In this document: in pieces, positions 6,813 through 61,707 of the stretch
Numbering within the stretch: the stretch's first letter is position 1
Layout of the letters: each line of letters starts with the position of its first letter
Source of the DNA: a virus
Lineage: Duplodnaviria > Heunggongvirae > Uroviricota > Caudoviricetes
Length of the DNA: 64,000 nt
Reading direction: 5' to 3' (one strand)
Virus record (IMG/VR): IMGVR_UViG_3300031993_000014
Span: 114,987 to 178,986 of that record
Position numbers and translations under genes: made by a program
The notes under the pieces: model-generated
The model's input: only the letters and a program-made list of their open reading frames with translations
Databases searched by the model: none
What the model was told of the DNA's origin: nothing

Positions 6813-6819
6813 TATTACT

Positions 6820-46052: not shown

Positions 46053-47057
46053 ATGTTCATTATTTTCAGAAGAGCTAAGATCGAATTCACCGTCTCGGAA
46101 TTCGAAGATATGCTTAACAATCATATGAGCATCTTTGCTCGTATTGAAAGCGAAAGTCTGGGAGAAACAAAGGGAGACCTTGATCTTTCCTTCCCAGACA
46201 AGAAAGAATCGGGCGGTGATATGAGTTTGGGAGACATGTCGGAAGACATGAGCCTTCCCTTTCTCGACAAGGGAGAAACAAAAGAAGACACTCCCAAAGA
46301 CCCTTTCGGTGTATGTGACCAATGCAGAAATGAACCTGCTAAAGAGCCGCACCACATCGGCCTCGATGATATCATTGCAAAGAAGGCAAAGCGCACCTCT
46401 AGGAAGAAATCTGCTCCTAAAGATACGCCTGTTGAAGTAAAGGAAGAACCCGTAGAAGCCGTCAGCACTCCAAGGGAAATTCCTAATTGCAATATGTTCC
46501 TTATCGCTTTCGCTATTAAGGCAGCAAGCCACCATGTCTTCTATAGCATCTATATGACGGAAGATGAGTATAGCCAGCTTGACTATCTCTTCTCTAAGTT
46601 CGGCGAACATCCGTTGTATTCTGACGCTCCGGCATTCGCTATCCGTGATGTTCAGTCTGTTCGCGGTCACAAGGATGAAGTCAAGACAGAAATTACTTGG
46701 AGCGAACTGAAGCAAATTTTCAATGCTCCGTTCGTTGAAGGTAATGGTTCCACGTTTGACAGCCATTTCGACAGAAATGCTGTCTGCATTGAACGCTGTG
46801 AAAGTGTCCTCAAGGCTCTCTGCTACAACCTCGGCAGGTCTCCCTCTGGCTTAAGCCTCGAAGAAGAAACAGCGAATGATAGACTTCTTCGCCGTGATAG
46901 GGAAGGACTTCTCAGTTATGTCTGTATACGTTCTGCATTCAGGGATCTTCTCAAGGTCTCTAGCGATACGGACAATCTCGAAGTTGCACCTGACCCGCGT
47001 GCTATCTTTACCACCACGCTCGGACTGGACGAAGATCTCGTCAAGGTTAATTCCTAA
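46053..47057 (+). CDS. hypothetical protein, 334 aa
   Basis: RBS AAAGGAG. Cys/His cluster near residue 90 (CDQCRNEPAKEPHH). Confidence 0.65.
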   Translation: MFIIFRRAKIEFTVSEFEDMLNNHMSIFARIESESLGETKGDLDLSFPDKKESGGDMSLGDMSEDMSLPFLDKGETKEDTPKDPFGVCDQCRNEPAKEPHHIGLDDIIAKKAKRTSRKKSAPKDTPVEVKEEPVEAVSTPREIPNCNMFLIAFAIKAASHHVFYSIYMTEDEYSQLDYLFSKFGEHPLYSDAPAFAIRDVQSVRGHKDEVKTEITWSELKQIFNAPFVEGNGSTFDSHFDRNAVCIERCESVLKALCYNLGRSPSGLSLEEETANDRLLRRDREGLLSYVCIRSAFRDLLKVSSDTDNLEVAPDPRAIFTTTLGLDEDLVKVNS

Positions 47058-47077
47058 CAGTGTTTTATAAAAAAAAG

Positions 47078-47112
47078 GAAGGCTACCGCAAGGTAGTCTT
47101 CTTTTTTTTTTC
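47078..47112. terminator. bidirectional terminator, GCAA loop
   Basis: A8, then ggctacc-gcaa-ggtagtc, then T12. Confidence 0.8.
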
Positions 47113-47117
47113 GGATC

Positions 47118-47426
47118 TTAGAAATTCCATTCTAAAAGCCAAGTATCTGTCACTTCGTCTACCCACTCCTTTCCCTCCAAGCGAGGACTGACGAATGACG
47201 TGATCTTAGTAAGCTTATAACCAGCTTCTTCCATCTCTGCCTTGAACTTTAGGCTAGAAGAAGATCTCACTTCTATGGAAGTATGGGTCAGACCCATCTT
47301 TATAGCCATAATGATGAACTTCTCAAGCTTATCTTTCAGTCTAGAGTAGTATTCGCTGTAGAACGGATAATCGTCTTTAACAGCTCTCATTTTCTCAATG
47401 GAGCGCAGATCTTTTGGGCTTAGCAT
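47118..47426 (-). CDS. hypothetical small protein, 102 aa
   Basis: ORF downstream of the NAD operon terminator. Confidence 0.5.
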   Translation of the reverse strand: MLSPKDLRSIEKMRAVKDDYPFYSEYYSRLKDKLEKFIIMAIKMGLTHTSIEVRSSSSLKFKAEMEEAGYKLTKITSFVSPRLEGKEWVDEVTDTWLLEWNF

Positions 47427-47446
47427 TTTCTCTCCTTCTTATGGGA

Positions 47447-47484
47447 ATCACAAAATAAAAGGGCTACCATTTGGTAGCCCTCTT
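47447..47484 (-). terminator. rho-independent terminator after nadE
   Basis: gggctacc-attt-ggtagccc is a perfect 8-bp stem, with TTTTATTTTGTG on the minus strand. Confidence 0.75.
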
Positions 47485-47502
47485 TACTCGTGCTTTGATG
47501 TT

Positions 47503-48270
47503 TCAACCAGAGAAGGCAGGAAGATATGCCGGAATATTAAGCATCTTGCGCTTGTATTCCATACGCTTCATGCGATCTGCCAGAGCAGTACGAACACCTT
47601 CGGACAATTCGTTAATGCCACCACGGATGAACGTATCAATCTGTTTGTAGGTGAACCCCATTTTCTCTTCATCAGACTGGCCAGTCAAGCCATCAGACGG
47701 AGTCTTGAGAACAAGGTCTTCAGGCAACCCAAGAGCGATACCGAGTTCACGGACTTCGGTCTTGGTCAAATTAGCCATCGGAGCGATGCTTCCCATGTCA
47801 GCCCACATGGTGAAATATCCTATCATGAGCTCAGAGAGATTTGCAGTACAGATGATCAGAGAATCGCCAATAGTCTGTGCGATAGCAGTTTCAACAGCCG
47901 TTCTTACATGCGGAGTGATATTGGTATTAGCTTGGACGCTGAGATCTTGCTTAGCCGGAAGAGCAAGCCTTACAGTCGCCTTAGCCGCAAGCACAGCCAT
48001 AGCAAGGTTAGCTTCGATAGTGTTGACAACGCCAGCAGCCTTGGCAGCACGCTTTGCGTCATCGAGGTCAACTTGAACACCGTTAGGCATGAAGATACCG
48101 TAAACATGTTCCGGGCCGACAGCCAAGGTAGCAACCTTAGCAAGAACGGTGGAGTCGGCACCGCCACTGATACCGAGAACGAGGTTCTTCATTCCGGCAT
48201 CTGCAACGACCTGTGCCGTCCAGTCTACGATTTCTTTTTTGACGATGTTAATGTCGTGAATCTTTTTCAT
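47503..48270 (-). CDS. nadE: NH3-dependent NAD+ synthetase
   Basis: PP-loop LGISGGADSTV. 255 aa, the short ammonia-dependent form. TGQSDEEKMGFTY motif. Confidence 0.85.
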   Translation of the reverse strand: MKKIHDINIVKKEIVDWTAQVVADAGMKNLVLGISGGADSTVLAKVATLAVGPEHVYGIFMPNGVQVDLDDAKRAAKAAGVVNTIEANLAMAVLAAKATVRLALPAKQDLSVQANTNITPHVRTAVETAIAQTIGDSLIICTANLSELMIGYFTMWADMGSIAPMANLTKTEVRELGIALGLPEDLVLKTPSDGLTGQSDEEKMGFTYKQIDTFIRGGINELSEGVRTALADRMKRMEYKRKMLNIPAYLPAFSG

Positions 48271-48286
48271 TTTTGTATACCTTTGG

Positions 48287-48856
48287 TTATTCGATCACTT
48301 CAATTTGTTGTGCACGGGCAACAGCCTTAGCTGCTTCATGACCCGGTTGTTCACCATGTTCGTTAGGTAATCCTGCCGAGCAGGTGCTGTCCCAAATGAT
48401 TCGCTTGTCTGGGAACATAGCTCTGAGGATAATAAGGTTGGCAATAACACAGATTTCAGAAACGAACCCGATGACGGTAATAGTTTCCGCTTGCTCAAGA
48501 ACTCTACGCATTTCTGGGAGATAGTTTTGGTCATCTTTTTCAAGTCCCCAATTAAGGCAGCCGAAAGTGTGCTTTTCTACAATCTGAATGAGCTTCGGCT
48601 TTGCAGCTCTATAGATGCTCGGTTCGATTTCGTAGCCCTGATCCTTAGCATAGACATCACAATGTTCCGGGATATGCTGGCCTTCGAGCGAGAACTTGTA
48701 GTAACGACCATCGTGCAAGTCTTCGGTCAGGATGACAGGCCCCTGATGGTTTTCGATTTTCTTAACGGCCTTTTCCAATACCGCTTGTGCCAACGGATTA
48801 GCGAGTCTTCCGTTGATGAAGTCTTTGTCAAAGTCAATACCAATAAGTGTATTCAT
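48287..48856 (-). CDS. pncA: nicotinamidase (isochorismatase-fold cysteine hydrolase)
   Basis: MNTLIGIDFDKDF (catalytic Asp), ...VIGFVSEICVIANLI (catalytic Cys). Start moved to the ATG at 48856 with AGGT RBS. Confidence 0.75.
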   Translation of the reverse strand: MNTLIGIDFDKDFINGRLANPLAQAVLEKAVKKIENHQGPVILTEDLHDGRYYKFSLEGQHIPEHCDVYAKDQGYEIEPSIYRAAKPKLIQIVEKHTFGCLNWGLEKDDQNYLPEMRRVLEQAETITVIGFVSEICVIANLIILRAMFPDKRIIWDSTCSAGLPNEHGEQPGHEAAKAVARAQQIEVIE

Positions 48857-48863
48857 TGTATAC

Positions 48864-50162
48864 CTACTTCTTGTGGGGGTTGAGATCAGATTTGATGAAA
48901 TCATCAATAATCTTTGTATGGTGGAAAGCGAGGACTGGCAGATCGTAGATGGGGAACCATCTAGCTTCAGCCGCATCATCGCCAGCTGTAATCATATCTT
49001 CTTCGTCAGGATCAATCTTTACAAAGAAGGCAGTATCGACAATCCGCATACGAGGATCGAACTTGCAGCTGTATGTCTTGATCTGATGGAAGTTGTTAGA
49101 GCAGAAATGCAATCCAACTTCTTCAGAGAATTCTCTAGCTGCGGTAGATTCAAGGCTTGGATCGTTTTCGACATCAAAGAATCCACCCGGAAGAGCCCAG
49201 TAGTCTTTATAAGGGTAATCCTTACGGCGGACAAGGAGGACTTCTTCGGACTGGTTCACAGCCACGATGTCAACAGTCGCAGAAGGCTCGCCATATGCCT
49301 TCATGATAGAATCTTTGAGCATAGCCATACCAGCCGTAGCAAAGACAGCTGAGCCAGTCTGTTCATTGGCAGGTTCATTGACCTTTATACAATTATCCTT
49401 GTATAAAGCCAGTGCTTGATTACCAGCATCGTTGTAGATTTCGTCAAAGTGTTCGCGGATATACTTGACAGTATTCTTCTTATACTTTTCAAGGAAGATT
49501 TCTTCGCCTCGTCTGTATTCCTGAAGACGGTGCTGATGATACAGAGATCTGGAAAGAATGTAGTTAGCTGCTGCATCAGGCAATCCGAGTGCCTTGAACT
49601 TCTCCGGATGATTTTCAAGGATGAATGGATGCAGTTCAAGCAATTCACGGATTTTAGTAGAGGAAACCTTCTTTGTAAGCAGGGAGTCGTCACCGAGCTC
49701 AAGCCTGATAAACGGCTTGGATTGCGGAACTTTCTTCCAGAGTGCTTCAAGAGTATCGTATTTTCTAAATCCACGTTCTGCTACGATAAAGTTAGCGTAG
49801 TGCATGAGAGCATTGCTGTTACGCCATTTTCCATTGGCGATGTTCATTGCCTGATCCATCCCGACAACGATATAAGCATCTTCGATGTTGAGCTTAAGCG
49901 TTTCCGTAATATAGTCATACATACGGGCATCTTGTTCCGCAATTCTGAAGGACTTATGAAGCGGAGCAAAAGCTCTTCTTACCATTTCCATGCGGTCTTC
50001 GTAAGAGGAATTATATACCTTTTCGTCATTGCAGGAAATGAGAACGATGGCTTCAAAGCCATCAGTAAAGTTCTTGAAGGCATAGTCCAATGCTTTTTCA
50101 AATACGGCTCTGTGACCGATAGTGACAGGGTCAAATGCCCCGCCATAGATCAATGTCCTCAT
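48864..50162 (-). CDS. bifunctional NMN/NaMN adenylyltransferase with C-terminal Nudix hydrolase (NadM/NatV-like)
   Basis: IYGGAFDPVTIGHRAV is the (H/T)xGH motif. KVSSTKIRELL is the ISSTxIR motif. Nudix box GGFFDVE...AAREFSEEVGL. Start ATG overlaps the pncB stop (TAATG). Confidence 0.85.
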   Translation of the reverse strand: MRTLIYGGAFDPVTIGHRAVFEKALDYAFKNFTDGFEAIVLISCNDEKVYNSSYEDRMEMVRRAFAPLHKSFRIAEQDARMYDYITETLKLNIEDAYIVVGMDQAMNIANGKWRNSNALMHYANFIVAERGFRKYDTLEALWKKVPQSKPFIRLELGDDSLLTKKVSSTKIRELLELHPFILENHPEKFKALGLPDAAANYILSRSLYHQHRLQEYRRGEEIFLEKYKKNTVKYIREHFDEIYNDAGNQALALYKDNCIKVNEPANEQTGSAVFATAGMAMLKDSIMKAYGEPSATVDIVAVNQSEEVLLVRRKDYPYKDYWALPGGFFDVENDPSLESTAAREFSEEVGLHFCSNNFHQIKTYSCKFDPRMRIVDTAFFVKIDPDEEDMITAGDDAAEARWFPIYDLPVLAFHHTKIIDDFIKSDLNPHKK

Positions 50163-51442
50163 TAATAAGCCCTCCACAAGCGTTGCGAGTTATGTTTCTC
50201 AATGATAGTCTTAACGAATTCCGTGATTGCTTCCGGATTATCCTTAAGATAAGCAAGCTCGCTCAGAGGCTGATAGTTAAAGTCATTCTTGACTCTGATG
50301 ATCTGTTCTTCGTCGTCATGGTTGCACTTGCCAGCAACATCGCTCAGCTTGATAGCCGAGATACCGTTACCGCTATAGAGCTTCATGACCATATTGAGAG
50401 GATCACCACCAACGGTATTGGTGAGGAATGTGCCTTGTCCGATGGCAACATTGATAACATGAGCAAACATCTTAACGAGCATTACCACATCATCATCCTT
50501 CAAACTGTCGCTAAAGCAAGCGGTCTTAGTAAGAGGATTGATCTTGAGCTGCTTGTAGAATTCGATAAGGATCTGGCACCAGAGTACTGGATCGCCACTG
50601 TCATGGCGAACACCGTCGGCGAGCTTGGCATAGAGCAAGTCGAAGTCTTCGAGGAAGGCCTTGAAACCATAGGTGTCGCTGAGGAAGATACCGAGATTGC
50701 CACGATATTCACGAAGCCATGCATCGAAGGTTGCACGCTGCGATTCCGAGAGACGGAACTTAGAAATCGTCTGGAGAAGCATGAACATCTGATGGGCCAT
50801 TGTACCCATGTCCTTCACGCCGTTGATCATTGCCATATAGACATTACTTGTACCAACGAAAGCCTTGCAGTTTTCGATAAGGTACTTGACAACGAACATC
50901 TGCCAATCAAAGCTTGCACGGCGACGAGTACCGAAGTCGCTGAGAGTAAACTTGTAGCCCTCGTCGTAGATCTTGTTATACTTGTCTACGGCTTCCTTCA
51001 AACGCTTCTTGCCGAATTCATAATCGGTAGGCTGGTCAATCATCCACAGTTCCTGAATGATCTCAAGGACGTAGATTTCAAACCAATGGTCACGTTCTTC
51101 AAGACCATTAGTCCATACTCCAAGGACATCACCATCACGGGCGACATGGATGTCTTCACGAGGGAGACGGAAGTCACGGAGCCAACGAATGTAGTCTTCG
51201 CTGTACCAATTGTGACTTGCGATAAAGGAGAGTTCATCTTCTCCGTGCTTAAGTTCACAGAGATGATTGAGCTGATACTCAAGTTCATCTTTCAGGTAAG
51301 CAGTCTTCTTACCTTGCGAACGGATTGTCAACTTCCACTGCGAACGTTCGTTCGGGAACTGGTGATGAAGTACCTGACCCATCGAATACTTGTAAGCATC
51401 CGTGTCGGTAAGGTGATTGACGATGCACTTATAGTGACCCAT
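50162..51442 (-). CDS. pncB: nicotinate phosphoribosyltransferase
   Basis: Blocks align to E. coli PncB: HLTDTDAYKYSM (LLDTDAYKLHM), LSDFGTRRRAS (MDFGTRRRFS), AFVGTSN, GVRHDSGDP, KLSDVAGK. Confidence 0.85.
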   Translation of the reverse strand: MGHYKCIVNHLTDTDAYKYSMGQVLHHQFPNERSQWKLTIRSQGKKTAYLKDELEYQLNHLCELKHGEDELSFIASHNWYSEDYIRWLRDFRLPREDIHVARDGDVLGVWTNGLEERDHWFEIYVLEIIQELWMIDQPTDYEFGKKRLKEAVDKYNKIYDEGYKFTLSDFGTRRRASFDWQMFVVKYLIENCKAFVGTSNVYMAMINGVKDMGTMAHQMFMLLQTISKFRLSESQRATFDAWLREYRGNLGIFLSDTYGFKAFLEDFDLLYAKLADGVRHDSGDPVLWCQILIEFYKQLKINPLTKTACFSDSLKDDDVVMLVKMFAHVINVAIGQGTFLTNTVGGDPLNMVMKLYSGNGISAIKLSDVAGKCNHDDEEQIIRVKNDFNYQPLSELAYLKDNPEAITEFVKTIIEKHNSQRLWRAY

Positions 51443-51445
51443 GTT

Positions 51446-51631
51446 TTACCTCGTTGAGAGTTTTAGGAGTGTATAGAGAACCATTAGGAACAGTATCACA
51501 GGTGTTCCCAGATAGATTATTACTGCAATGAGTATAATCTTCCACATTGGTAAATGTCTCTTAGGATTTACCAATAGCATAAACAATACTATAAAGAATG
51601 TAGCTAGAATAGTCCATGTTATCAGAATCAT
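51446..51631 (-). CDS. small 2-TM hydrophobic protein, 61 aa
   Basis: MILITWTILATFFIVLFMLLV...IILIAVIIYLGTPVILFLMVLYTLL. Confidence 0.5.
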   Translation of the reverse strand: MILITWTILATFFIVLFMLLVNPKRHLPMWKIILIAVIIYLGTPVILFLMVLYTLLKLSTR

Positions 51632-51736
51632 CCACCGCCTCCGGTGATGACCATATACACCACCACGGCAATGATTCCAATGAAAGCTAGACAGCCAATA
51701 CAGCTCTTGCCTTCAGAGGTTGTTTGTTTTTCCATG
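51632..51736 (-). CDS. 34-aa hydrophobic peptide (MEKQTTSEGKSCIGCLAFIGIIAVVVYMVITGGGG)
   Basis: Not in the track because it is short. Its TGA overlaps the ATG of the next peptide gene (ATGA). Confidence 0.35.
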
Positions 51737-51796
51737 TTGTTTCCTTTTGCAAAAGAAATAAGTATATGACCATTTAGCCATATACTGTAAAAAATA

Positions 51797-51876
51797 ATAT
51801 ACGGCTTTACTTAGAGTAAAGCCGTATGATTTATGAATAAAACTATTCACGCCCAGCTTTACCCAGAGAGTAAAGC
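51797..51876 (-). terminator. two tandem hairpins GCTTTAC-N7-GTAAAGC; the first has a U-tract
   Basis: acggcttta-cttagag-taaagccgt (51801-51825), followed on the minus strand by ATATTATTTTTTAC. A second similar hairpin lies at 51856-51876. Confidence 0.55.
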
Positions 51877-51950
51877 GGAAGAAGAAGCGAGAAGAATGAT
51901 TTGATTCATATAGCAACCACCAAAGAGAAGAAGTATGTTTCATTTTAAAG

Positions 51951-52967
51951 TTAGTACGGGATTGCTTGGATTGAGCCGTCTTCGTTAACTTGAGGCGGTT
52001 GCGGATCGGACGATGCCGGAGTAGACACACGCTGAGTGGTTTCGCCATCGCTATGAGCATGCTCCAATGCTCCAAGAGAATCCAAGGCAAATGTCATGTT
52101 AGACGGATCCTCTTCAGATCTTGGCGCTACTGTGGCTATCACACGAATCGCATCAGAAACAGATTGTGGCATGTGTCTGCTAAACATTGTATCAAGCCGA
52201 TCGTGGATTTCTCTCACAAGACGTTCAGTATGGACTCGGTTAAGAGCATTGTCTCTAATAACGCTCTCAGCTTCTCTGAAAACAAGATCAGAACTAAGGG
52301 TTTGATTGGCTGTCCTGAAGGTATGCTCGTTGTTTGCAGTATCCAGCGTAGTATTCCGCAAGATGTTATTGCTTAAACTCACCCAGTTGTTCATAAGAGA
52401 ATATGCCGTTGCGTAATCGTAAGACACTTCCGGGCTGAGAGTACGTCCGTTTCTAGATTCAGTTAAGTCAGTTACAGGAACGGTGATTTGTTGCAGACTT
52501 TCTTCTGTTGCTCGAATGTCCGGATCTTCATCACGCAAGTCTTGCCATTCAGCAGTAACGTTATGGCGGTCTTCTTCTTCGGTTATATCCGCCACCTGAT
52601 TTGCACATGGAGCTAAAATCACCTTCTTCAGAGTCTCTTCCAGAATTCCGAAAGCGTATTTACTTATATCACCATCCGCGAAATGCTTTGCATAAGCATT
52701 CTCGCTCTTAGTTTTAATGGGGCCATTATCAGATTCTGGATAGAAGACAACAGAACCCATGTCAGTTAATAACACACGGTTGTAGATATAGCAATCATTC
52801 GTGAATCTTTGAAACTCGATGGGATAATGGTGTTCACCGGAAACGTTTAATATGTTTCCGCTAATCTGATCAAACTCGGGTATAAGACATGCAAAGGACT
52901 TATTACTGGGTCTATCTATGAAACAAGAGACAAACCCGATAGTATTAAGAATTGTTAGACCAGTCAT
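51951..52967 (-). CDS. paralog-array member, long form: family domain plus ~200-aa acidic C-terminal extension
   Basis: N-terminal TILNTIGFV and KYAFGILEETLKKV match the family motifs. Most promoter-distal gene of the array. Confidence 0.6.
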   Translation of the reverse strand: MTGLTILNTIGFVSCFIDRPSNKSFACLIPEFDQISGNILNVSGEHHYPIEFQRFTNDCYIYNRVLLTDMGSVVFYPESDNGPIKTKSENAYAKHFADGDISKYAFGILEETLKKVILAPCANQVADITEEEDRHNVTAEWQDLRDEDPDIRATEESLQQITVPVTDLTESRNGRTLSPEVSYDYATAYSLMNNWVSLSNNILRNTTLDTANNEHTFRTANQTLSSDLVFREAESVIRDNALNRVHTERLVREIHDRLDTMFSRHMPQSVSDAIRVIATVAPRSEEDPSNMTFALDSLGALEHAHSDGETTQRVSTPASSDPQPPQVNEDGSIQAIPY

Positions 52968-53377
52968 TCCATTACTCCTACCTTGTATTTTCTAGCTATT
53001 TCGATTGCGCCAAAGGCTTGTTTCTTTAGTGCCTCAACACGATTACGAGTTAAAAGTCTATGGCGATCTTCTTTCGTATTGCTCCATCTTCGTGTTGCCG
53101 GATCATAGATAGACATAGAAGTTACAGACCAGATAGTAGGCTCGTACATGCTCTTATCTTTTCTGGACACCTCTGAGAAGACAAATGTGGCGTTGTTGGT
53201 ATGGACATCAACCGTATAGCAATCAAGACCGGGTATTCCCCACATCTCTAGAGCAAGCAAATCTAGCATACGCAAGATTTCGAAATGCTCTTCTTTTGTT
53301 GCCATACGGTCTTCTTGTCTTCTACAACGCTCCATGTCCTCTTTGAGGTTAACTACGCTGTCATCAAGCTCGCTCAT
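52964..53377 (-). CDS. small-protein paralog family member
   Basis: C-terminal KQAFGAIEIARKYK. Stop and start overlap with neighbours. Confidence 0.6.
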   Translation of the reverse strand: MSELDDSVVNLKEDMERCRRQEDRMATKEEHFEILRMLDLLALEMWGIPGLDCYTVDVHTNNATFVFSEVSRKDKSMYEPTIWSVTSMSIYDPATRRWSNTKEDRHRLLTRNRVEALKKQAFGAIEIARKYKVGVME

Positions 53378-53777
53378 GGCCTATACCAACTTCTTTCGCA
53401 AGCTTCTCTAGAAATCCGATGTTCCACTTCATTATACTATTGGGTGTTTCGTCATTTAGACTCTTGCGAACAAAATCATATTTCCAGTCTGTGTTTAAAT
53501 GAATAAAGTCCGGTTCTTTTACTATCTCCGAATACGAATACAGACGGAGCATACCCTCGCTACTTTCCCGAACTAAGAGCATAGCAGTATTGGTGCCAGG
53601 CCCGAAACCAGAGAAGGCGAAAGCCGCATCTTCCTTTCTCTCGAAGCAAACTCTATCGTTCATTATAAATCTAGTATGCCGCCCTATATCTTCAGCGCTT
53701 ATAGCATTATTGAATCTTCTATGCAACAACTCAGCGCCCATAGTTGCTACTAGTGTTCCAAATCCTGATGGACTCAT
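53364..53777 (-). CDS. small-protein paralog family member
   Basis: C-terminal WNIGFLEKLAKEVG. Confidence 0.55.
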   Translation of the reverse strand: MSPSGFGTLVATMGAELLHRRFNNAISAEDIGRHTRFIMNDRVCFERKEDAAFAFSGFGPGTNTAMLLVRESSEGMLRLYSYSEIVKEPDFIHLNTDWKYDFVRKSLNDETPNSIMKWNIGFLEKLAKEVGIGHERA

Positions 53778-53794
53778 TAAACCTCCCTGTTAGT

Positions 53795-54190
53795 TTATAA
53801 AAGTTCATATCCTTCATTCGTTAATCTACTGCCCCCATTTGTACGATTCTCCATTAAGCCTTGCACAAGGACAATCAATTTACTTCCGCAGACCAAATGT
53901 AACGGCTCAAGTTTTAGATCACGGCTTCGATTACACCATAGACAGCAGCCCTCGTCTTCGCCACCGTTCCAAGTAAAATTGGTGTAAGTGCTTATCTTAA
54001 TGCCGTCCTTGCTCTTCCAGAGATTTACAGCTGCGGATCCTAACCCTCCAACAAAAGTGAAATCAAAGTCAATGAAATTCAATCTGTTAAGTGAAGATTC
54101 CACGTCACGAACACCTTCTCCGACGGTATCATAGCTATCTAAGAATAATCCTAAAGTCAAAAGAACGTGAGATACAAACTCAGTCGTCAT
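53795..54190 (-). CDS. small-protein paralog family member
   Basis: Start at the ATG with AAGGAG RBS (MTTEFVSHVLLTLGLF...). C-terminal LIVLVQGLMENRTNGG. Confidence 0.6.
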   Translation of the reverse strand: MTTEFVSHVLLTLGLFLDSYDTVGEGVRDVESSLNRLNFIDFDFTFVGGLGSAAVNLWKSKDGIKISTYTNFTWNGGEDEGCCLWCNRSRDLKLEPLHLVCGSKLIVLVQGLMENRTNGGSRLTNEGYELL

Positions 54191-54614
54191 CGTCTTCTCC
54201 TTCGTTCTTTGAGAAGTACATAAGCATCTCAGCATTGCCTAGTACAAGATTCATGAGCTTTTCGTCGGACAATTCAGCGATGTTGTGGTCACAGATATCG
54301 TGATCTCCAGACATAAGATTACCGAGTCTGCTCATGCGTGAATAAGAAGAAAGAGTGATTACGGTATGGTGTGTCCCGTCGGCAATAACTTTATTCGACG
54401 TATCAAACAAGAAAGCAGAGTCTATGAAACCATACAACATTCCTCTCATAAAAGAAGCGGTATGTGTCTTCACATGATTCTCTATCTGTCCCGCTATGAT
54501 CTCCACAGCATCCTCGTCTTCGGTTATACCGATTCTCGTTCTTACGTAACCCATAGATTCAAAGTCATACCCGAGAGATAGGAGTATCATGCTAATGTAC
54601 TTGGTGTGTCTCAT
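54180..54614 (-). CDS. small-protein paralog family member
   Basis: N-terminal MILLSLGYDF. C-terminal LVLGNAEMLMYFSKNEG. Confidence 0.6.
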   Translation of the reverse strand: MRHTKYISMILLSLGYDFESMGYVRTRIGITEDEDAVEIIAGQIENHVKTHTASFMRGMLYGFIDSAFLFDTSNKVIADGTHHTVITLSSYSRMSRLGNLMSGDHDICDHNIAELSDEKLMNLVLGNAEMLMYFSKNEGEDDDD

Positions 54615-54975
54615 GGTACTTCCTCCCGTAATACAGTAATGTTTCAGCTTGCCCGAACAATACCCTCATCAATTTCTCAATGCGTATTTCCATAACGGTT
54701 TCATTATTGAAGTCATAATTGTTCTTTACAAAATTGTTGGTGCTGAATTCACGCGAATATGTGTTCAGCTTATGGGTACCGCTTGGAACATAGGCTATGA
54801 CGACTGTATCCGTAACCCCGAAGATCCTACCGTTGAAGTGGCAACGCTTACAGTCCAACATGCTTCTTGCGACTCGCCTCAAGCTTTCTTCCATACTTGC
54901 TTCTGTGACGGTGCCTTCATATGTATTGTGAAGGCCCATCAGCAGCATCATTCTGTAACATCTAAGAGGCATCAT
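54592..54975 (-). CDS. small-protein paralog family member
   Basis: C-terminal RVLFGQAETLLYYGRKY. Confidence 0.6.
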   Translation of the reverse strand: MMPLRCYRMMLLMGLHNTYEGTVTEASMEESLRRVARSMLDCKRCHFNGRIFGVTDTVVIAYVPSGTHKLNTYSREFSTNNFVKNNYDFNNETVMEIRIEKLMRVLFGQAETLLYYGRKYHETHQVH

Positions 54976-55348
54976 TGTCTAATCCTCTCCTTATTATCAT
55001 AAGAGATTCTAGATTTCCGAATAAGCACCGTACGAGATCAACTTCTTGCATGTCCTTTATCGGTTCTTCTCTAGCATCCCCATCACGGGAGAGCAAAGTC
55101 GTAGAACCAGATGTAGAACGTCTAGAAAATGTCTCTATCCGGTATCCGTATTCTTTGTGCTTAGTGATGAAAACTGCCGTGTCGTCATGATAGGCGATAA
55201 ACTTGAATCCAAAGATCGTACGCTTCATTGCCAATAATGACACGACTCTGGCAGTATCCATAACACTACTGATACTGTTCGCTGGCAGACCTAAGCGATG
55301 CTCCTGTCCTAGAGTGAGGAGAATAATTACGCTATCGAGAAGCTGCAT
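54962..55348 (-). CDS. small-protein paralog family member
   Basis: N-terminal IILLTLGQEH. C-terminal RCLFGNLESLMIIRRGLDN. Confidence 0.6.
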   Translation of the reverse strand: MQLLDSVIILLTLGQEHRLGLPANSISSVMDTARVVSLLAMKRTIFGFKFIAYHDDTAVFITKHKEYGYRIETFSRRSTSGSTTLLSRDGDAREEPIKDMQEVDLVRCLFGNLESLMIIRRGLDNDAS

Positions 55349-55739
55349 GGGCTATTCTTCTCCCTACGGACAAGGTGCATTCTATATTTCCAAACATGTA
55401 TCTAGTGAAATCCTCTTTCGTCATGTAGTATATATTAACGCCTTTGGCATCATCTTTACAAGAGAGCATGAAATAAGCTCCACTAGTAGTGAATCTCGAA
55501 AAGGTCTTTAAAAGGAAGCCCTCATGTCGGTAGTCTTTAATCCTTTCTCTGATGATGTAAGCGGTTATATCGCTCACCCCGTATATGTTAGGCGAAAACC
55601 CAAGGCATGTGAAGTCATTGAACCATGTGATTAAGCCACTAGCGATAGAATTAACACCGCTAGTATTGATCAATATGTGTCCTGCACCATTGTCTAGCCC
55701 CAGAGAGAGCATCGTGCTTATGCTATCGAGCAGCCGCAT
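55332..55739 (-). CDS. small-protein paralog family member; start uncertain
   Basis: The track ORF extends to 55820 and overlaps the upstream gene by ~100 nt; internal ATGs at 55739 or 55712 (MLSLGLDNG) are more plausible. C-terminal RYMFGNIECTLSVGRRIA. Confidence 0.5.
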   Translation of the reverse strand: MRLLDSISTMLSLGLDNGAGHILINTSGVNSIASGLITWFNDFTCLGFSPNIYGVSDITAYIIRERIKDYRHEGFLLKTFSRFTTSGAYFMLSCKDDAKGVNIYYMTKEDFTRYMFGNIECTLSVGRRIAHAASR

Positions 55740-56112
55740 TAAAGTTTCCCCGATGGTTTTGCCAAAGCCGTTCAATATAGCCGAAGACAAACTTGCAGTA
55801 TTCATAGCTTTCAATGCCATTCAGCAACTTGTGCCTAAAGAAATCTCTAGGAATCTTCCTGTTGCCGATCAAGTCTCTGTCGGCAGATACATAGAAAGAA
55901 TCACCGTCCCTTTCGAACATGAAGACTTCATCATAGTGTCTGCCGTCTAAAAGCAGCTCAGATGAGAAATATCCAGTGTGGTTATCGTCAAACCATTGCT
56001 GAACCCTCTCATCAGCAGCGGAGACCGTAGGCCCAATCTCTTCACCGCCAAGAGGGAATCCTGCTCCATTAGTCAATAATACTTTCCAACAAAATGTTTT
56101 AAATAAAGCCAT
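55723..56112 (-). CDS. small-protein paralog family member
   Basis: LLTNGAGFP...WFDDNHTGYFSS...FVFGYIERLWQNHRGN. Closest to the next gene. Confidence 0.65.
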   Translation of the reverse strand: MALFKTFCWKVLLTNGAGFPLGGEEIGPTVSAADERVQQWFDDNHTGYFSSELLLDGRHYDEVFMFERDGDSFYVSADRDLIGNRKIPRDFFRHKLLNGIESYEYCKFVFGYIERLWQNHRGNFNAAAR

Positions 56113-56476
56113 AAGTCGTTCTCCTGTGTTTATCTAAAAGGTATTCATCAAACGCGAATATGAGCCTTACAAAATCCGTTTCATCAATTCTGGAAAAGCT
56201 GGTGACACGATGAGCATCGTCCACTTCTCTGCCTAGACTGCCGTCGTCGATCTCCATGAAGAAATCGCACTTTTTGCTGTCATAGTACAATGACAAAACT
56301 GATCTTATACAAAGGTCAAACATCACAGCGGAAAAGTATCCTTGAGAGTCACTGTTAAACCAGTTCATCACAAAATCGAAGGCTCCGGTGGCTGTTTCAC
56401 CGACTTCTCCAGCGGTATACGGGAAACCGAATCCGCTTGTTAACAAAATCTTAAATGCTGTTTCAGGCTGCAACAT
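56099..56476 (-). CDS. small-protein paralog family member
   Basis: LLTSGFGFP...WFNSDSQGYFSA...IFAFDEYLLDKHRRTTYG. Clearly homologous to 55723..56112. Confidence 0.65.
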   Translation of the reverse strand: MLQPETAFKILLTSGFGFPYTAGEVGETATGAFDFVMNWFNSDSQGYFSAVMFDLCIRSVLSLYYDSKKCDFFMEIDDGSLGREVDDAHRVTSFSRIDETDFVRLIFAFDEYLLDKHRRTTYGFI

Positions 56477-56966
56477 TTGGTAACATCCCCAGCTTACGGC
56501 TGTATTTCAAAAGCTCCTCAACTTGTCCAAAGAGGATCTTAGAAAACTTATCCCGTTCTCTTACGTTGAAGTTCTCGCCATGATCTCCGAAAACAAAGTC
56601 ATCATCGAAACCAAAGTCCTCGTTACCACTGCTGTTAACAAGAACGCCATTTAGAATTTCGAATCGCGAATATGTAGAAACAGCATCGCCTACTTCGTAC
56701 TCTTCCGGTTCGTAGTAGTTTACGAGCGTCGAACTTGGGAAGCCATACAGACTTCCGCAAAGATCAACATTAGACTCATCCTCCATGATCCTATTCACGA
56801 CCGCTGAAGCACGATCCACAAATTTGTTAAGATCAACTTCATCACCACTGTCAACATACTCTAAGATGGTTTCATCATCAACATCGATACCGAGAACAGC
56901 GGAAGAGTAGTAAATATGGTCAAATATACCGTCGTTTGTCATTTTAACCTCCTGACAAGTAAACAT
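56463..56966 (-). CDS. small-protein paralog family member
   Basis: C-terminal KILFGQVEELLKYSRKLG. Confidence 0.6.
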   Translation of the reverse strand: MFTCQEVKMTNDGIFDHIYYSSAVLGIDVDDETILEYVDSGDEVDLNKFVDRASAVVNRIMEDESNVDLCGSLYGFPSSTLVNYYEPEEYEVGDAVSTYSRFEILNGVLVNSSGNEDFGFDDDFVFGDHGENFNVRERDKFSKILFGQVEELLKYSRKLGMLPNVAA

Positions 56967-57399
56967 CTTCTGGAAGAACTAATGGAACGATTTCCGGATC
57001 TCTCGCTGCATGAGCCCAGTGTATCTTCATATCTCCCATCTCTTGCTCCAATGCTCCAATCATGGTTGTGATAACCATGTTTAGGGTTTCATTGATACTT
57101 TTTTGGTCATTGATATTGTTGGCTACTATGCGCGGTTTGTAGTGTCTCACTCCGTCTACATAGATAAGCCTTCGTATAGAGATTACACAATCGTCTTCGC
57201 TCCTATACAAGTCCAAAGGATTTCCAAAGAGAAGCGTAACGTCATAGCTACAATGTCTGTTAACAGCTATATTATTACGGAAATTATTGGCGCATTGCCG
57301 AATGGGATGAGAGTCAGTTTCACATGCAAATGCTGCCATCGTCTTGGCTATAATATAGGCATGATGCATGACTGTTACAGCTATTTTAAAGCTCATCAT
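56944..57399 (-). CDS. small-protein paralog family member
   Basis: C-terminal TMIGALEQEMGDMK. Confidence 0.5.
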   Translation of the reverse strand: MMSFKIAVTVMHHAYIIAKTMAAFACETDSHPIRQCANNFRNNIAVNRHCSYDVTLLFGNPLDLYRSEDDCVISIRRLIYVDGVRHYKPRIVANNINDQKSINETLNMVITTMIGALEQEMGDMKIHWAHAARDPEIVPLVLPEDVYLSGG

Positions 57400-57796
57400 A
57401 AACCTCGATAATTTGGGGTGTGAGACCTCGTTTTCTGTACTCTAGGGCTACATCTTCTAATAGCCCTATGCACAGCTTGGCTAGATCTGTCTTTTTCATG
57501 ACAGTGATTCTACGTTCAACGTAGTCATCGTGTTCCGTACTGTGATTGAGCTTCATAAACTGGCCACATGCAACAAGGGCAGTATAAGTGCTGATCTTAT
57601 GATCATCAATCATGAAAGCATAGTAATCCATGAAGAATGGCTCTTCCGGAAGAACTACGAAGTTAATGCAGCGTGTACTTGCCAAGACTTCGAGTCTGAT
57701 GCTCTCTTCAGGGGCAGTAGTCATACCCATAGCAAAGAGAGCTTTACATGCCTCCAGCTTTCCTTTAAGATATTCAGTCATAATCCTCCTTTGCAT
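57386..57796 (-). CDS. small-protein paralog family member
   Basis: N-terminal ALFAMGMTT. C-terminal KLCIGLLEDVALEYRKRG. Confidence 0.55.
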   Translation of the reverse strand: MQRRIMTEYLKGKLEACKALFAMGMTTAPEESIRLEVLASTRCINFVVLPEEPFFMDYYAFMIDDHKISTYTALVACGQFMKLNHSTEHDDYVERRITVMKKTDLAKLCIGLLEDVALEYRKRGLTPQIIEVYDEL

Positions 57797-58189
57797 CTAA
57801 GATATAATATCCCAAAGAAAACCGTTCTTTCTGTCCAACTTTGCTATGCCTTCCATTAGCCCAATGATAAGCATCACTATCCTTCTCTTATCGAGATGCT
57901 CAAGCTGCTGATAGCGTATGTCCTGTGTTCCTTGTATAAAATTGTACATCTGATAAAGAACAGTGCCGTGGTCAAGCTGTGGCATACACGCTTTTGCCTC
58001 AATTTGCGTTGCTGTGCAAAAGGCAAGATTGGATACAGTTATTACTGTATTGTTAAAGATGTAGTCACGGTCTACGAAAAAGGTAAGATGACCGCTGCTT
58101 TTTAATCCCATAGACTGAGCAGCGCTCTCTATGTATTGATAATTCGCTACACAAAGAGCACCATTTCTCATAGCATCTTCGGTATTCAA
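57797..58189 (-). CDS. small-protein paralog family member
   Basis: C-terminal MLIIGLMEGIAKLDRKNG. Confidence 0.55.
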   Translation of the reverse strand: MNTEDAMRNGALCVANYQYIESAAQSMGLKSSGHLTFFVDRDYIFNNTVITVSNLAFCTATQIEAKACMPQLDHGTVLYQMYNFIQGTQDIRYQQLEHLDKRRIVMLIIGLMEGIAKLDRKNGFLWDIIS

Positions 58190-58629
58190 AACGGTATATC
58201 CCCCTCTGGAATATTCCCATTCCAGTTAATGTCTTTTAGGCGGTCTATCTCAGCTAATCTTTCCATGAAGCCAAACAGTCGCTTGCTTATTTTCTCTATC
58301 GTAAGTTCAGAGTAATGAGCATTGAGAAAGTCGCCTTGGCCCTTTTCCAGATGAAAAAGCAGACTCGGGTATCTTTCATCAATGTTATCTGCAAAGTCAG
58401 TATACGAATTGAGGTATGGGCCACTTATAAGAAACGCAGGATTCCTCAGTTCCAGATATCCCCTAGTAGGCAAAAAGGGAATGATTTGTCCCATTACGTT
58501 AGTAAGACCCATAGACTCGCATAGACGAATACAGACTCTAGACATATCTTCGGCGTCACAGAAATCAGTCTCCTCTGCGAGTGGCTCATGCACATATTCG
58601 TACTGCGTTAAGTATGTGGTGAAATCCAT
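58186..58629 (-). CDS. small-protein paralog family member
   Basis: C-terminal KRLFGFMERLAEIDRLK. Confidence 0.6.
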   Translation of the reverse strand: MDFTTYLTQYEYVHEPLAEETDFCDAEDMSRVCIRLCESMGLTNVMGQIIPFLPTRGYLELRNPAFLISGPYLNSYTDFADNIDERYPSLLFHLEKGQGDFLNAHYSELTIEKISKRLFGFMERLAEIDRLKDINWNGNIPEGDIPF

Positions 58630-59024
58630 AGGTTCCTGTCTATCTTGTTGAATTCGTGTTTAAAGACTTCTTCTAACGCGCCAAAGGCTGTAGCTAGAAG
58701 TTCGCTCGGTTCTACGGATTCCATTTCGAAGCAGTCATAGTCGTCGATTTGAGATGCTGTTTCATACCTAGGTCTATACAAGCCGAGACGTACCTCTGGC
58801 TGTGTCGTTTCTACTTTCTTGAAGTTTAGTTCTGTAAAAGACCAGAGATAGTCCTGATCCTCTATGAAGACAATATCACCGGGAAAGGTAGTATTGAGCT
58901 GTATGCCGTATGATATCGCCACCTCAGAATATTCGTCTTCGTCTCTGTTAAAGGTTCTCTCGTCAAAGAGAAGTGATTTAACGGTTGAATCAAAATTGTA
59001 AAATTCCATCAGAGAATTCTCCAT
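58608..59024 (-). CDS. small-protein paralog family member
   Basis: C-terminal LLATAFGALEEVFKHEF. Confidence 0.55.
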   Translation of the reverse strand: MENSLMEFYNFDSTVKSLLFDERTFNRDEDEYSEVAISYGIQLNTTFPGDIVFIEDQDYLWSFTELNFKKVETTQPEVRLGLYRPRYETASQIDDYDCFEMESVEPSELLATAFGALEEVFKHEFNKIDRNLWISPHT

Positions 59025-61633: not shown

Positions 61634-61707
61634 ACATTTCTCCTTGTATACTCTTTATTATATACTATGAAAAAATAAAGCTCATGGACGAATCCATGAG
61701 CAATTCT

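Follow-up and report, generated by a model that had tools for sequence, protein, structure and literature searches.

A jumbo phage with a genome of ~242 kb, a distant relative of Bacillus phage AR9/PBS1, encodes four adjacent genes that probably provide a complete Preiss–Handler route to NAD+ as one transcription unit, likely for the survival of NADase-based defence and for general NAD+ supply. Sequence, predicted structures, and gene context give the pathway reading good support, through the gene identities, the near restriction of a NadD-Nudix fusion to phages, the recurrence of the gene set, and the lack of Nampt beside the fusion at the IMG/VR loci.

Organization of the operon

The window, the whole 64-kb stretch of this genome that was analyzed, is marked as phage DNA by genes for a tail sheath, a large terminase, a DNA polymerase, and a baseplate protein. 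Four minus-strand ORFs had been claimed at 47503-51442 in the initial annotation, and reading of the sequence located four adjacent co-directional genes there, in the order pncB, nadD-nudix, pncA, and nadE along the strand. The features of the unit are as follows.

51799-51827, minus strand: upstream terminator-like hairpin of 13 pairs plus a T-run, which ends the upstream gene (consensus scan and sequence reading)
51628-51735, minus strand: 35-aa ORF with one hydrophobic helix (MEKQTTSEGKSCIGCLAFIGIIAVVVYMVITGGGG) and a AAAGGAAA motif upstream
51446-51631, minus strand: 61-aa ORF with two hydrophobic helices, ending 3 nt ahead of the pncB start
50162-51442, minus strand: pncB, 426 aa, predicted to convert nicotinic acid and PRPP to NaMN in an ATP-coupled reaction
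48864-50162, minus strand: nadD-nudix, 432 aa, Pfam CTP_transf_like and NUDIX
48287-48856, minus strand: pncA, 189 aa, isochorismatase fold, predicted to convert nicotinamide to nicotinic acid and NH3
47503-48270, minus strand: nadE, 255 aa, single-domain, predicted to convert NaAD, ATP, and NH3 to NAD+
47457-47484, minus strand: intrinsic-terminator-like hairpin of 12 pairs (6 G-C) with a T-run, beginning 19 nt past the nadE stop

The ATG of nadD-nudix shares its A with the TAA of pncB, which gives the TAATG junction noted earlier. The other junctions had been given as 8 to 17 nt; counting just the nucleotides that separate stop from start corrects them to 7 nt (nadD-nudix TAG to pncA start) and 16 nt (pncA TAA to nadE start). 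In the mechanical ORF list, two genes begin further upstream, at a GTG at 50177 and an ATG at 48979. The cassette genes are preceded by Shine–Dalgarno-like motifs, and the internal ATGs behind such motifs are the starts that agree with gene calls on other contigs.

The unit extends a little beyond the four genes, with two small membrane ORFs before pncB and terminator-like hairpins on either side. The stop of the 35-aa ORF overlaps the start of the 61-aa ORF (ATGA). The 35-aa ORF is possibly the first gene of the operon; it was also predicted by gene calling on an independent contig and has a clear homologue at the same position in the related phage contig L005. That contig also carries a two-helix ORF of similar size at the position of the 61-aa ORF, and no counterpart of the two-helix ORF is present in more distant cassettes. 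The 61-aa ORF alone is too short to form a transporter.

The hairpins at 51799-51827 and 47457-47484 were taken as the upstream and downstream boundaries of the unit, and a second upstream hairpin lies at 51786-51761. The region contains 6 terminator-like sites against 3.9 +/- 1.9 in shuffles, which is not clearly higher; therefore, the argument for the upstream hairpin is its position and not statistics. Sub-threshold Rfam matches in the region fell only on the downstream hairpin.

PncB and NadE

Catalytic motifs are kept in all four proteins of the cassette. The pncB product matches Pfam NAPRTase_N and NAPRTase as well as the NCBIfam models NF003704 (380.5, cut-off 379) and TIGR01514 (313.9, cut-off 269.55). 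Of the six PDB entries matched at E<=1e-5, every one is a NAPRTase, the best being 1yir (1.7e-66), and the candidate phospho-histidine is His217 within GTMAH. Identity as Nampt was considered and rejected, as similarity to phage Nampt is not significant (E 0.022). These results uphold the earlier assignment of the phosphoribosyltransferase to PncB.

NadE has the P-loop SGGADS and no glutaminase domain. Its description as an NH3-dependent NAD synthetase is borne out by agreement among Pfam NAD_synthase (6e-45), TIGR00552 (162.6, cut-off 63.65), PHROG 11189 'NAD synthetase', and the best PDB match, 2e18 of P. horikoshii (5.8e-29, 104.6 bits). It is very improbable that the steps follow the Francisella order, in which the NadE homologue would be an NMN synthetase (NaMN to NMN) and the adenylyltransferase would then use NMN. 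In length the phage NadE resembles the short F. tularensis NadE 3fiu (249 aa, 79.8 bits), and its Gln132 and Arg236 align with Francisella Gln133 and Arg236, positions that Sorci et al. in 2009 reportedly identified as setting NadE specificity. However, the first position is Asn in 2e18, the closest solved NadE, and the second is Lys in the NAD synthetase of P. aeruginosa, so the two residues are not diagnostic. In addition, M. jannaschii NadE, of the same archaeal subfamily as P. horikoshii NadE, has been shown to be a true NAD synthetase, and the adenylyltransferase of the phage is of the NadD type, whereas NMN synthetase is accompanied by the NadM type. NMN synthetase itself occurs in Francisella (PMC3376133).

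The NadD-Nudix fusion

The N-terminal part of the fusion (~residues 1-205) is a NadD-type (Na)MN adenylyltransferase with the motifs GGAFDPVTIGH and SSTKIR. It is followed by a helical linker (~residues 213-289) bearing a lineage-specific insertion, and by a C-terminal Nudix domain of the ADP-ribose-binding clade (~residues 294-425, REFSEEVGL). The family alignment is invariant at G7, D11, P12, H17, R172, G326, G327, R343, E344, E347, and E348. In profile comparisons with the PDB, the adenylyltransferase domain matched NadD structures (5llt at 68.5 bits, and 2h29) and the Nudix domain matched 2fml, 2qjo, and 2qjt. The AF2 model (pLDDT 88.7) aligned in Foldseek with NadD structures at TMt 0.72-0.74 and with an NrtR Nudix carrying ADPR at an rmsd of 2.1 A. 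The NadD domain is divergent, scoring 57.7 with TIGR00482, under the cut-off of 112.45.

The protein had been described as a bifunctional adenylyltransferase-Nudix enzyme, with NadM/NatV as the family to compare it with. The fusion is confirmed, whereas the NadM/NatV type is not: the adenylyltransferase has no detectable pairwise similarity to NadM, its PDB profile and Foldseek matches point to NadD, and only the Nudix half is homologous to the NARP2 enzyme.

Another function of the Nudix domain is conceivable, such as the destruction of immune signals derived from ADPR, the decapping of NAD-capped RNA, or the hydrolysis of NADH. Sequence is a poor guide to Nudix specificity, the weak PDB matches include NADH pyrophosphatases, and a 2026 preprint reportedly describes phage enzymes that break down Thoeris signals based on ADPR and supply NAD+ synthesis. 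Such a role is nevertheless unlikely, given that the ADPR pyrophosphatase domains of NadM-Nudix proteins and the ADPR-binding NrtR Nudix are the top matches by sequence and structure, and that identity to the Nudix half of a phage NARP2 enzyme reaches 38% (E 7e-18).

PncA and the probable nicotinamidase step

PncA is divergent, with a Pfam Isochorismatase score of 30.3 (cut-off 27) and no NCBIfam match. Motif alignment to P. horikoshii PncA (1ilw) places a triad at Asp8/Lys95/Cys136 and a metal site at Asp46/His48/His65, and all six residues are invariant across 9 homologues. An Asp-x-His...His metal site is typical of nicotinamidases. The AF2 model has a pLDDT of 84.6, with the loop carrying His65 modelled at low confidence, and its Foldseek matches include PncA of S. 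aureus, B. subtilis, S. mutans, S. pneumoniae, and M. tuberculosis. The earlier claim of a nicotinamidase is thus maintained for a predicted, divergent PncA.

If the protein instead acted on another amide or ester, the route would start from nicotinic acid and have only three steps. The Pfam score just over its cut-off, the missing NCBIfam match, and the Foldseek placement of carbamoylsarcosine amidase, biuret hydrolase, and maleamate amidohydrolase alongside nicotinamidases would fit this alternative, as would the published cluster of Li et al., which names pncB, nadD, and nadE only (PMC11662467). It is quite unlikely, however, because the metal site is invariant together with the Asp/Lys/Cys triad, and the place of pncA between or beside nadD-nudix and nadE is kept across lineages of only 30-40% identity.

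Recurrence of the gene set

A survey of related phage contigs for the four-gene cassette, suggested with the initial annotation, found it in many divergent viral metagenome contigs, always co-directional. The set, arranged in either of two gene orders and spanning 3.8-9.8 kb, occurs in 12 of 25 IMG/VR loci with a full-length NadD-Nudix, and further metagenome contigs carry it with identities of only 30-42%. NadD-Nudix, PncA, and NadE are adjacent in two more lineages. A run of four genes from one pathway is not a chance arrangement, and many unrelated contigs show this set again. RNA ligases are encoded close to the cassette at 4 of 13 loci, and in a 431-kb phage a microbial PARG gene overlaps the cassette start.

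Nampt was never found beside a full-length NadD-Nudix at the IMG/VR loci; it stands only beside three loci (L038-L040) that match the Nudix half alone. In cellular genomes (185,579 species genomes), one full-length fusion was found among the best 80 of 135 confirmed matches, on a 26.5-kb MAG contig. Judged by these searches, the fusion appears nearly confined to phage contigs.

At about half of the NadD-Nudix loci, none of PncB, PncA, and NadE lies within 8 kb. These missing partners are a point against the reading of a complete route.

Proposed pathway and possible role

All four families of the previously proposed route from nicotinamide through nicotinic acid, NaMN, and NaAD to NAD+ are present, and the Nudix domain adds a predicted conversion of ADPR to AMP and ribose-5-phosphate. 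PncA would first deamidate nicotinamide to nicotinic acid, freeing NH3, after which PncB would couple nicotinic acid to PRPP to yield NaMN, with ATP coupling through the phospho-histidine. The NadD-type domain would adenylylate NaMN, rather than NMN, to NaAD, and NadE would amidate NaAD, rather than NaMN, to NAD+ using ATP and NH3; this NH3 would balance the PncA release one-to-one. The Nudix domain would presumably act on ADP-ribose, and host PRPP synthetase (Prs) may return the ribose-5-phosphate to the PncB step. Neither a PRPP synthetase nor a niacin or nicotinamide transporter was found in the 64-kb window. The route would rebuild NAD+ from both products of NAD+ cleavage, and the net effect would be to raise or restore NAD+ in infected cells without reliance on the salvage genes of the host. 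Four steps are costlier in ATP than the two-step Nampt route, a point against the main reading.

The selective advantage would most likely be survival of NAD+-depleting abortive infection, together with NAD+ supply during a long jumbo-phage infection. An anti-defence role is plausible; no sequence feature separates counter-defence from plain metabolic support. It is quite possible that the operon gives general support with no specific link to NADase immunity, keeping NAD+ high for long and demanding jumbo replication or making up for missing niacin salvage in the host. No sensor or inhibitor is part of the cassette, its enzymes are ordinary housekeeping types, and phages with NAD+ pathways often carry NAD-dependent enzymes and complement the pathways of their hosts (Li et al. 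2024, PMC11662467). In contrast, no NAD-consuming enzyme was seen among the scanned window ORFs (64 kb of the ~242-kb genome), and the ligase near one cassette is ATP-dependent. The cassette would also handle exactly the two NADase products, nicotinamide and ADPR, and a PARG-type ADP-ribose-processing gene precedes one cassette.

Comparison with known systems

The route had been proposed as a distinct architecture. It does differ from NARP1, NARP2, and the later NARP3, but it was not undescribed, and the novelty claim for a four-enzyme phage route was overstated. Li et al. 2024 (Microbiome, PMC11662467) reported pncB-nadD-nadE Preiss–Handler clusters in gut 'NAD-jumbo phages', e.g., Kuafu_71, and proposed self-sufficient NAD+ synthesis and possible counter-defence. 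The two systems share a jumbo-phage genome, clustered pncB, nadD, and nadE, and the nicotinic-acid route. That work was at the level of annotation, and its main text describes no nicotinamidase in the cluster, NadD-Nudix fusion, or operon structure. Most members of the Kuafu clade have Bacteroidota as their assigned hosts, in contrast to the AR9/PBS1-like phage here, which uses Shine–Dalgarno motifs.

Among isolated jumbo phages, Sinorhizobium phage Phosso (PV764938.1) clusters genes for NadE, PncB, Nudix, an adenylyltransferase, and an isochorismatase-fold hydrolase in a stretch of ~6.5 kb, but the adenylyltransferase and the Nudix are encoded separately there, the cluster is interrupted by other genes, and its PncB shares only 32% identity with the one here. 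Agrobacterium phage Atu_ph07 has PncB and a nearby Nudix, with neither NadE nor an isochorismatase in the 17-kb stretch examined.

NARP2 (KVP40 NadV-NatV, that is, Nampt and NadM-Nudix) also starts from nicotinamide and PRPP and uses a bifunctional adenylyltransferase-Nudix enzyme with a homologous Nudix half. It proceeds in two steps via NMN, whereas the present route would take four via nicotinic acid, NaMN, and NaAD, with PncB in place of Nampt and a NadD-type domain in place of NadM. The predicted domain arrangement of the fusion also differs, with an rmsd of 17-20 A over both domains. NARP1 (Adps and Namat) likewise rebuilds NAD+ from both NADase products, ADPR and nicotinamide. It re-joins ADPR-PP and nicotinamide directly, whereas here ADPR would be broken to ribose-5-phosphate and the dinucleotide rebuilt stepwise; Pfam and NCBIfam found no PRPS-like or Namat-like gene in the cassette. 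NARP3, which is also a phage-encoded restoration of NAD+, consists of a PnuC-like transporter and a NadR-like enzyme (Sci Adv 2026, PMC13464706). Its nicotinamide riboside import, NR kinase, and NMN adenylyltransferase are not encoded here.

Bacterial Preiss–Handler salvage (PncA, PncB, NadD, NadE) comprises the same four reactions and enzyme families. In bacteria these genes are usually dispersed and NadD stands alone, whereas in the phage they form one operon in which NadD is fused to Nudix.

Organization of the NAD+ operon

A six-frame ORF listing gave four successive minus-strand ORFs between 47503 and 51442, and their limits were read directly from the strand. The four-gene minus-strand operon that the initial annotation had proposed at this place was thus confirmed. 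The genes and the features that flank them, in the direction of transcription, are as follows.

51827-51799 and 51786-51761, minus strand: two similar hairpins behind an upstream 338-aa gene
51628-51735, minus strand: small hydrophobic ORF of 35 aa, between the upstream hairpins and pncB
51446-51631, minus strand: small hydrophobic ORF of 61 aa, between the 35-aa ORF and pncB
50162-51442, minus strand: pncB, 426 aa
48864-50162, minus strand: nadD-nudix, 432 aa; its own ATG overlaps the pncB stop as TAATG
48287-48856, minus strand: pncA, 189 aa; 7 nt behind the nadD-nudix TAG
47503-48270, minus strand: nadE, 255 aa; 16 nt behind the pncA TAA
47484-47457, minus strand: hairpin 3' of nadE, 12 pairs with a T-run, starting 19 nt past the nadE stop

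Independent gene calls on another contig with identical proteins gave identical limits for the cassette genes. A Shine-Dalgarno-like motif lies 5' of every cassette start, and such motifs precede 54 of the 82 window genes compared with 13% of random positions; this usage argues against a Bacteroidota-like host. Because the two small hydrophobic ORFs sit between the upstream hairpins and pncB, are coupled to each other by an ATGA overlap and are joined to pncB by a 3-nt spacer, the transcription unit probably comprises six genes, from about 51735 to 47457. Both small ORFs are kept in the nearest related contig (L005) and are absent from more distant cassettes. An Rfam search of the whole window returned nothing at gathering thresholds; neither an NAD+ riboswitch nor any other known RNA was detected in the operon or ahead of it, and sub-threshold matches within 47000-52300 fell only on the terminator hairpin.

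Several neighbouring features were also recorded. The NAD unit is directly preceded by an array of about 25 small ORFs that share one orientation (52964-62769, minus strand; about 90-165 aa); their stop and start codons mostly overlap, and none of those scanned has a Pfam match. BLASTP revealed paralogy between some neighbours only, for example 54180-54614, 54592-54975 and 56463-56966, and a similar array of small ORFs flanks the L005 cassette. A 576-aa SPFH/Band 7-flotillin protein is encoded at 38347-40077 on the plus strand, about 8 kb from the cassette, and is also found near the cassette in L005. In Vibrio phage vB_ValS_X1, genes for an SPFH/band 7 protein, a calcineurin-like phosphoesterase and an RNA ligase likewise lie near the NARP2 pair, and the neighbourhood may be one that recurs. 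Very long antisense ORFs mirror real genes (plus-strand spans 50135-51457, 47398-48330 and 6766-11016); the one facing pncB has 440 aa and the one facing the tail sheath gene has 1416 aa. ORFs of about 630-650 aa occur on both strands at 32034-33983 (minus) and 32094-33986 (plus), neither with a family match, so that either strand could be the coding one.

The phage genome

Two further genes of the window bear on the phage that carries the operon.

6820-10992, minus strand: tail sheath, 1390 aa, unusually large; PHROG 19666 matches in three stretches
21418-21948, minus strand: HNH-AP2 homing-endonuclease-like gene, directly downstream of a 536-aa DNA polymerase ORF (region 21418-23683)

Other phage proteins in the window are a large terminase, a baseplate-like protein, RusA and a baseplate spike OB domain. 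The remaining ORFs are mostly without a family match, and no tRNAs were found in the window. On account of these structural and replication genes and of the 242-kb contig, a bacterial or prophage origin of the window was rejected. The terminase is nearest to that of the Bacillus jumbo phages BpSp, AR9 and PBS1 (40-42% identity), followed by Staphylococcus jumbo phages. No near-identical DNA was found among 50,697 phage records, where no deposited phage was similar at the DNA level, and an exact-sequence search with the tail sheath protein gave no match. A protein identical to the NadD-Nudix fusion is encoded on a contig of 242,489 bp. Judging by the lack of DNA-level relatives, the affinity of the terminase and the length of this contig, the genome belongs to a jumbo phage that has not been cultured and is a distant relative of the AR9 group. 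The polymerase ORF that the HNH-AP2 gene adjoins is a family-B-like fragment, and the terminase of AR9/PBS1 relatives matches in two stretches, which suggests that mobile elements interrupt core genes in this phage group.

PncB, PncA and NadE

PncB carries the N-terminal and catalytic barrel domains of nicotinate phosphoribosyltransferases (Pfam PF17767 and PF04095). It scores 313.9 against TIGR01514 (cut-off 269.55) and marginally exceeds the cut-off of NF003704 (380.5 against 379). Its GTMAH motif (His217) aligns with GTMAH/GTQAH of 1yir and 3os4; the histidine of this G-T-x-A-H motif is presumably the autophosphorylation site, with the role that it has in Salmonella PncB. Each of the six PDB matches at E<=1e-5 is a nicotinate phosphoribosyltransferase, with 1yir as the best (1.7e-66). 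Assignment as Nampt/NadV was rejected, with no Nampt structure matched in the PDB at 1e-5 and a BLASTP E value of 0.022 against phage Nampt. A weak match to PHROG 448 (1e-15) is expected from the common superfamily. The enzyme is thus PncB, as had been claimed, and does not cluster with Nampt.

PncA is the lowest-scoring assignment of the four (Pfam Isochorismatase 30.3 against 27; no NCBIfam match). Its motifs IDFDKDF, TEDLH, IPEHC and SEICV align singly with the P. horikoshii nicotinamidase. The triad Asp8/Lys95/Cys136 is invariant in nine homologues, and the motifs of Asp8 and Cys136 align with P. horikoshii PncA. The metal ligands Asp46 and His48 (in TEDLH) and His65 (in IPEHC) are invariant in the same nine homologues, and their motifs correspond to TRDWH and WPRHC in 1ilw. 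In the predicted structure (pLDDT 84.6), which matches nicotinamidases of five bacteria and also other amidases of that fold, the His65 loop has low pLDDT. No catalytic residue was missing, in keeping with the nicotinamidase originally annotated. The present analysis adds evidence that the third cassette gene is probably a real nicotinamidase, and the strongest argument for this identity is its preserved position in the cassette.

NadE exceeds the cut-off of TIGR00552 (162.6 against 63.65), has the ATP-pyrophosphatase loop GISGGADS and consists of one 255-aa domain without a glutaminase domain. It is nearest to NH3-dependent NAD+ synthetases, in keeping with the function proposed for it. The protein is a divergent member, because it falls below the cut-offs of the full-length equivalog models (NF010587, 151 against 255).

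The NadD-Nudix fusion

The N-terminal domain of the fusion carries the nucleotidyltransferase motifs GGAFDPVTIGH and SSTKIR. Across 40 homologues, D11, P12, H17 and R172 are invariant, and T14, S167 and S168 are nearly invariant. In searches with a profile of 40 sequences, the best whole-domain matches of the adenylyltransferase were NadD enzymes (5llt, 68.5 bits; 2h29, 59.5 bits), and Foldseek also placed this domain with NadD structures (TMt 0.72-0.74). The score against the NadD equivalog TIGR00482 is 57.7, below the cut-off of 112.45, so the domain is a divergent relative.

The initial annotation had described an NMN/NaMN adenylyltransferase of the NadM/NatV kind, and this part of it was overturned, since both profile and fold match NadD. 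NadM type was rejected for the adenylyltransferase because NadM-Nudix enzymes match the fusion by their Nudix half alone, in profile and pairwise comparisons. For the PRK05379 models, for 2qjo/2qjt and for 87 phage records, the match is confined to the Nudix part, and the pairwise alignment with phage NadM-Nudix covers residues 294-421 only. Superposition of both domains on NadM-Nudix was poor (rmsd 17-20 A).

The Nudix core REFSEEVGL is intact, with R343, E344, E347 and E348 invariant, and the best matches of this domain are 2fml, 2qjo, 2qjt and 3gz8. Read from the sequence, the spacing from the glycine pair to RE is 2-3 residues longer than in the canonical GX5EX7RE. Foldseek matched the second domain to the ADPR-bound Nudix domain of NrtR (rmsd 2.1 A). 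In the AlphaFold model (pLDDT 88.7), a linker of three helices joins the adenylyltransferase to the Nudix domain, and an insertion in this linker is modelled with lower confidence. On these sequence and fold comparisons, the NadD-Nudix protein is distinct from NadM-Nudix; its recognition as a phage-restricted fusion is new here.

Distribution and linkage of the cassette

The fusion family comprises 180 clusters at 90% identity in a word-indexed search, and about 40-60 full-length clusters at 50% identity among 1.84 billion representatives, as counted from the listing. In the deposited phage collection no record covered 80% of the fusion, and 87 of the 87 matching records corresponded to the Nudix part only. 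In 185,579 species-representative cellular genomes, one full-length fusion occurred among the best 80 of 135 confirmed matches, on a contig of 26.5 kb that had been assigned to a MAG. An IMG/VR scan with the fusion as a single protein gave no confirmed relative. Of the 28 loci that the alignment-based scan of IMG/VR gave, 25 (L013-L037) encode the fusion in full length and three match the Nudix half only. Nampt lies beside these three NadM-type loci alone and never beside the NadD-type fusion.

PncB, PncA and NadE are encoded within 8 kb of the fusion in 12 of the 25 full-length IMG/VR loci. With other metagenome contigs included, 17 loci (some mutual duplicates) hold the complete four-gene set, which is always co-directional, in two gene orders, with spans of 3.8-9.8 kb. 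Other genes can be inserted in the cassette; in L005, the closest related one, a gene for a 371-aa radical-SAM protein (9206-10321) separates nadD-nudix from pncA. PncB, PncA and NadE are all missing from the 8 kb around the fusion in about half of the NadD-Nudix loci (L008, L018, L023, L027-L031, L033-L035, L037 and L041), several of which sit on contigs of 230-424 kb; the partners may be encoded elsewhere in those genomes, or the fusion may work by itself. In two more lineages, whose contigs measure 220 kb and 431 kb, NadD-Nudix, PncA and NadE are adjacent and PncB is not nearby. The linkage persists through rearrangement and at 30-42% identity, which is good evidence for a joint function of the four genes and also favours NaMN as the substrate of the fusion. 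A preference for NaMN over NMN would likewise fit the context of the fusion, which is partnered with PncB and NadE and never with Nampt.

On the 431-kb contig (L122, 9181-9999), a microbial-type PARG gene lies directly upstream of NadD-Nudix, PncA and NadE, and its end overlaps the start of the fusion, which ties ADP-ribose processing to the cassette. RNA ligases were found near 4 of 13 cassette loci. In the neighbour screen of these 13 loci, two proteins had BRCT and HHH_5 domains, which occur in NAD-dependent DNA ligases; they were not located among 30 follow-up ORFs. Two near-identical contigs (L011 and L012, 4259-5482) differ in pncB, which is intact in one (407 aa) and split in the other into ORFs of 110 aa and 279 aa beside a GIY-YIG endonuclease gene. 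A frameshift, an assembly error or decay could account for the split.

Proposed order of reactions

The four-enzyme route from Nam through NA, NaMN and NaAD to NAD+ is the best-supported model. The full route had been put forward at the outset and is supported by the families, the motifs and the recurring four-gene linkage. PncA would convert Nam to NA and NH3, PncB would convert NA and PRPP (with ATP) to NaMN, the NadD domain would form NaAD from NaMN and ATP, and NadE would convert NaAD, ATP and NH3 to NAD+. The Nudix domain would cleave ADPR to AMP and ribose-5-P, and the ribose-5-P could be recycled by the host PRPP synthetase. The gene identities and their linkage are observed, and the preferred substrates, the involvement of host Prs and the role in physiology are inferred.

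A Francisella-like order would run from NaMN to NMN to NAD+, with NadE acting as an NMN synthetase. The phage NadE has the Gln and Arg of the Francisella NMN synthetase at two positions that may be specificity determinants, but true NAD synthetases vary there (Asn or Lys), so this residue comparison is not diagnostic. Given this variation and a partner adenylyltransferase of the NadD type, the Francisella-like order is held at low probability, and the route through NaAD is preferred.

Counter-defence or metabolism

The route through NaAD, together with the Nudix activity, would consume exactly the two products of NADase effectors. This consumption, the RNA ligases and PARG near cassettes, and the finding that none of about 44 window ORFs scanned encodes an NAD-consuming enzyme lead us to lean towards counter-defence, on circumstantial grounds. 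Counter-defence and metabolic roles may also go together. We tentatively suggest, as a possibility held at somewhat below even confidence, that the cassette is a fourth phage NAD+ reconstitution pathway. In this proposal, a five-activity operon built around a phage-specific NadD-Nudix would rebuild NAD+ from both NADase products via deamidated intermediates, so that jumbo phages escape SIR2-, TIR- and SEFIR-type depletion, and routing through NA, NaMN and NaAD might evade host measures directed at NMN or ADPR-PP.

Anti-phage NAD+ depletion is widespread in bacteria. At about 4.3 kb, the cassette is a compact natural operon; its gene limits are clear, its catalytic residues are intact, and divergent homologues are numerous. 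It is directly clonable as a putative counter-defence module and is a candidate part for therapeutic phages or NAD+-overproducing strains. The enzymes belong to ordinary housekeeping families and the idea is published, and therefore specialists will find little surprise; the interest would be considerably greater if the cassette defeats NADase immunity.

Comparison with known systems

In the literature consulted, three phage NAD+-rebuilding pathways have been experimentally demonstrated so far, and the nicotinic-acid route has been noted in annotation surveys only. Our literature search found no experimental test of this route in a phage. A survey from 2022, which covered NAD+/ADPr systems across 21,191 viral proteomes, listed NadV, NadM and NadR as the main enzymes of NAD+ synthesis in phages, with no mention of PncA or NadE. 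PncA, PncB and NadE are also absent from the preprint of Osterman et al. on NARP1 and NARP2, and NARP3 consists of PnuC and NadR (PMC13464706). No match to the NARP1 (Adps and Namat) or NARP3 families was found in the four cassette proteins or in the other window ORFs scanned. The cassette differs from NARP2 in that its phosphoribosyltransferase lies outside the nicotinamide phosphoribosyltransferase family of Nampt/NadV.

Among the 668 gut jumbo phages that were assembled by Li et al. (2024), 174 were reported to encode a complete salvage or Preiss-Handler pathway (PMC11662467). Kuafu_71 has a pncB-nadD-nadE cluster, phage pncA is mentioned, and counter-defence against NAD+ depletion was proposed (PMC11662467). 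Clusters of this kind combine pncB, nadD and nadE on a phage genome of >200 kb, and the present cassette, whose fusion protein occurs in identical form on the contig of 242,489 bp, agrees with this pattern. Within 6.5 kb, Sinorhizobium phage Phosso, an isolate, also has genes for NadE, PncB, a Nudix protein, an adenylyltransferase and an isochorismatase-fold hydrolase. The distinct architecture claimed for the cassette therefore stands against NARP1 and NARP2 but not against the jumbo-phage clusters of Li et al. (2024); this kind of cassette is already published, and the basic idea is not new. The present analysis adds the exact gene limits and operon structure, the evidence for a putative nicotinamidase as the third gene, and the apparently phage-restricted NadD-Nudix fusion. 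This fusion is analogous overall to KVP40 NatV, with homology confined to the Nudix half. In it an NAD adenylyltransferase and an ADP-ribose hydrolase are paired for a second time, and its adenylyltransferase half has no detectable similarity to the NadM-Nudix counterpart, which argues that the coupling of ADPR breakdown to NAD+ synthesis is under selection in itself.
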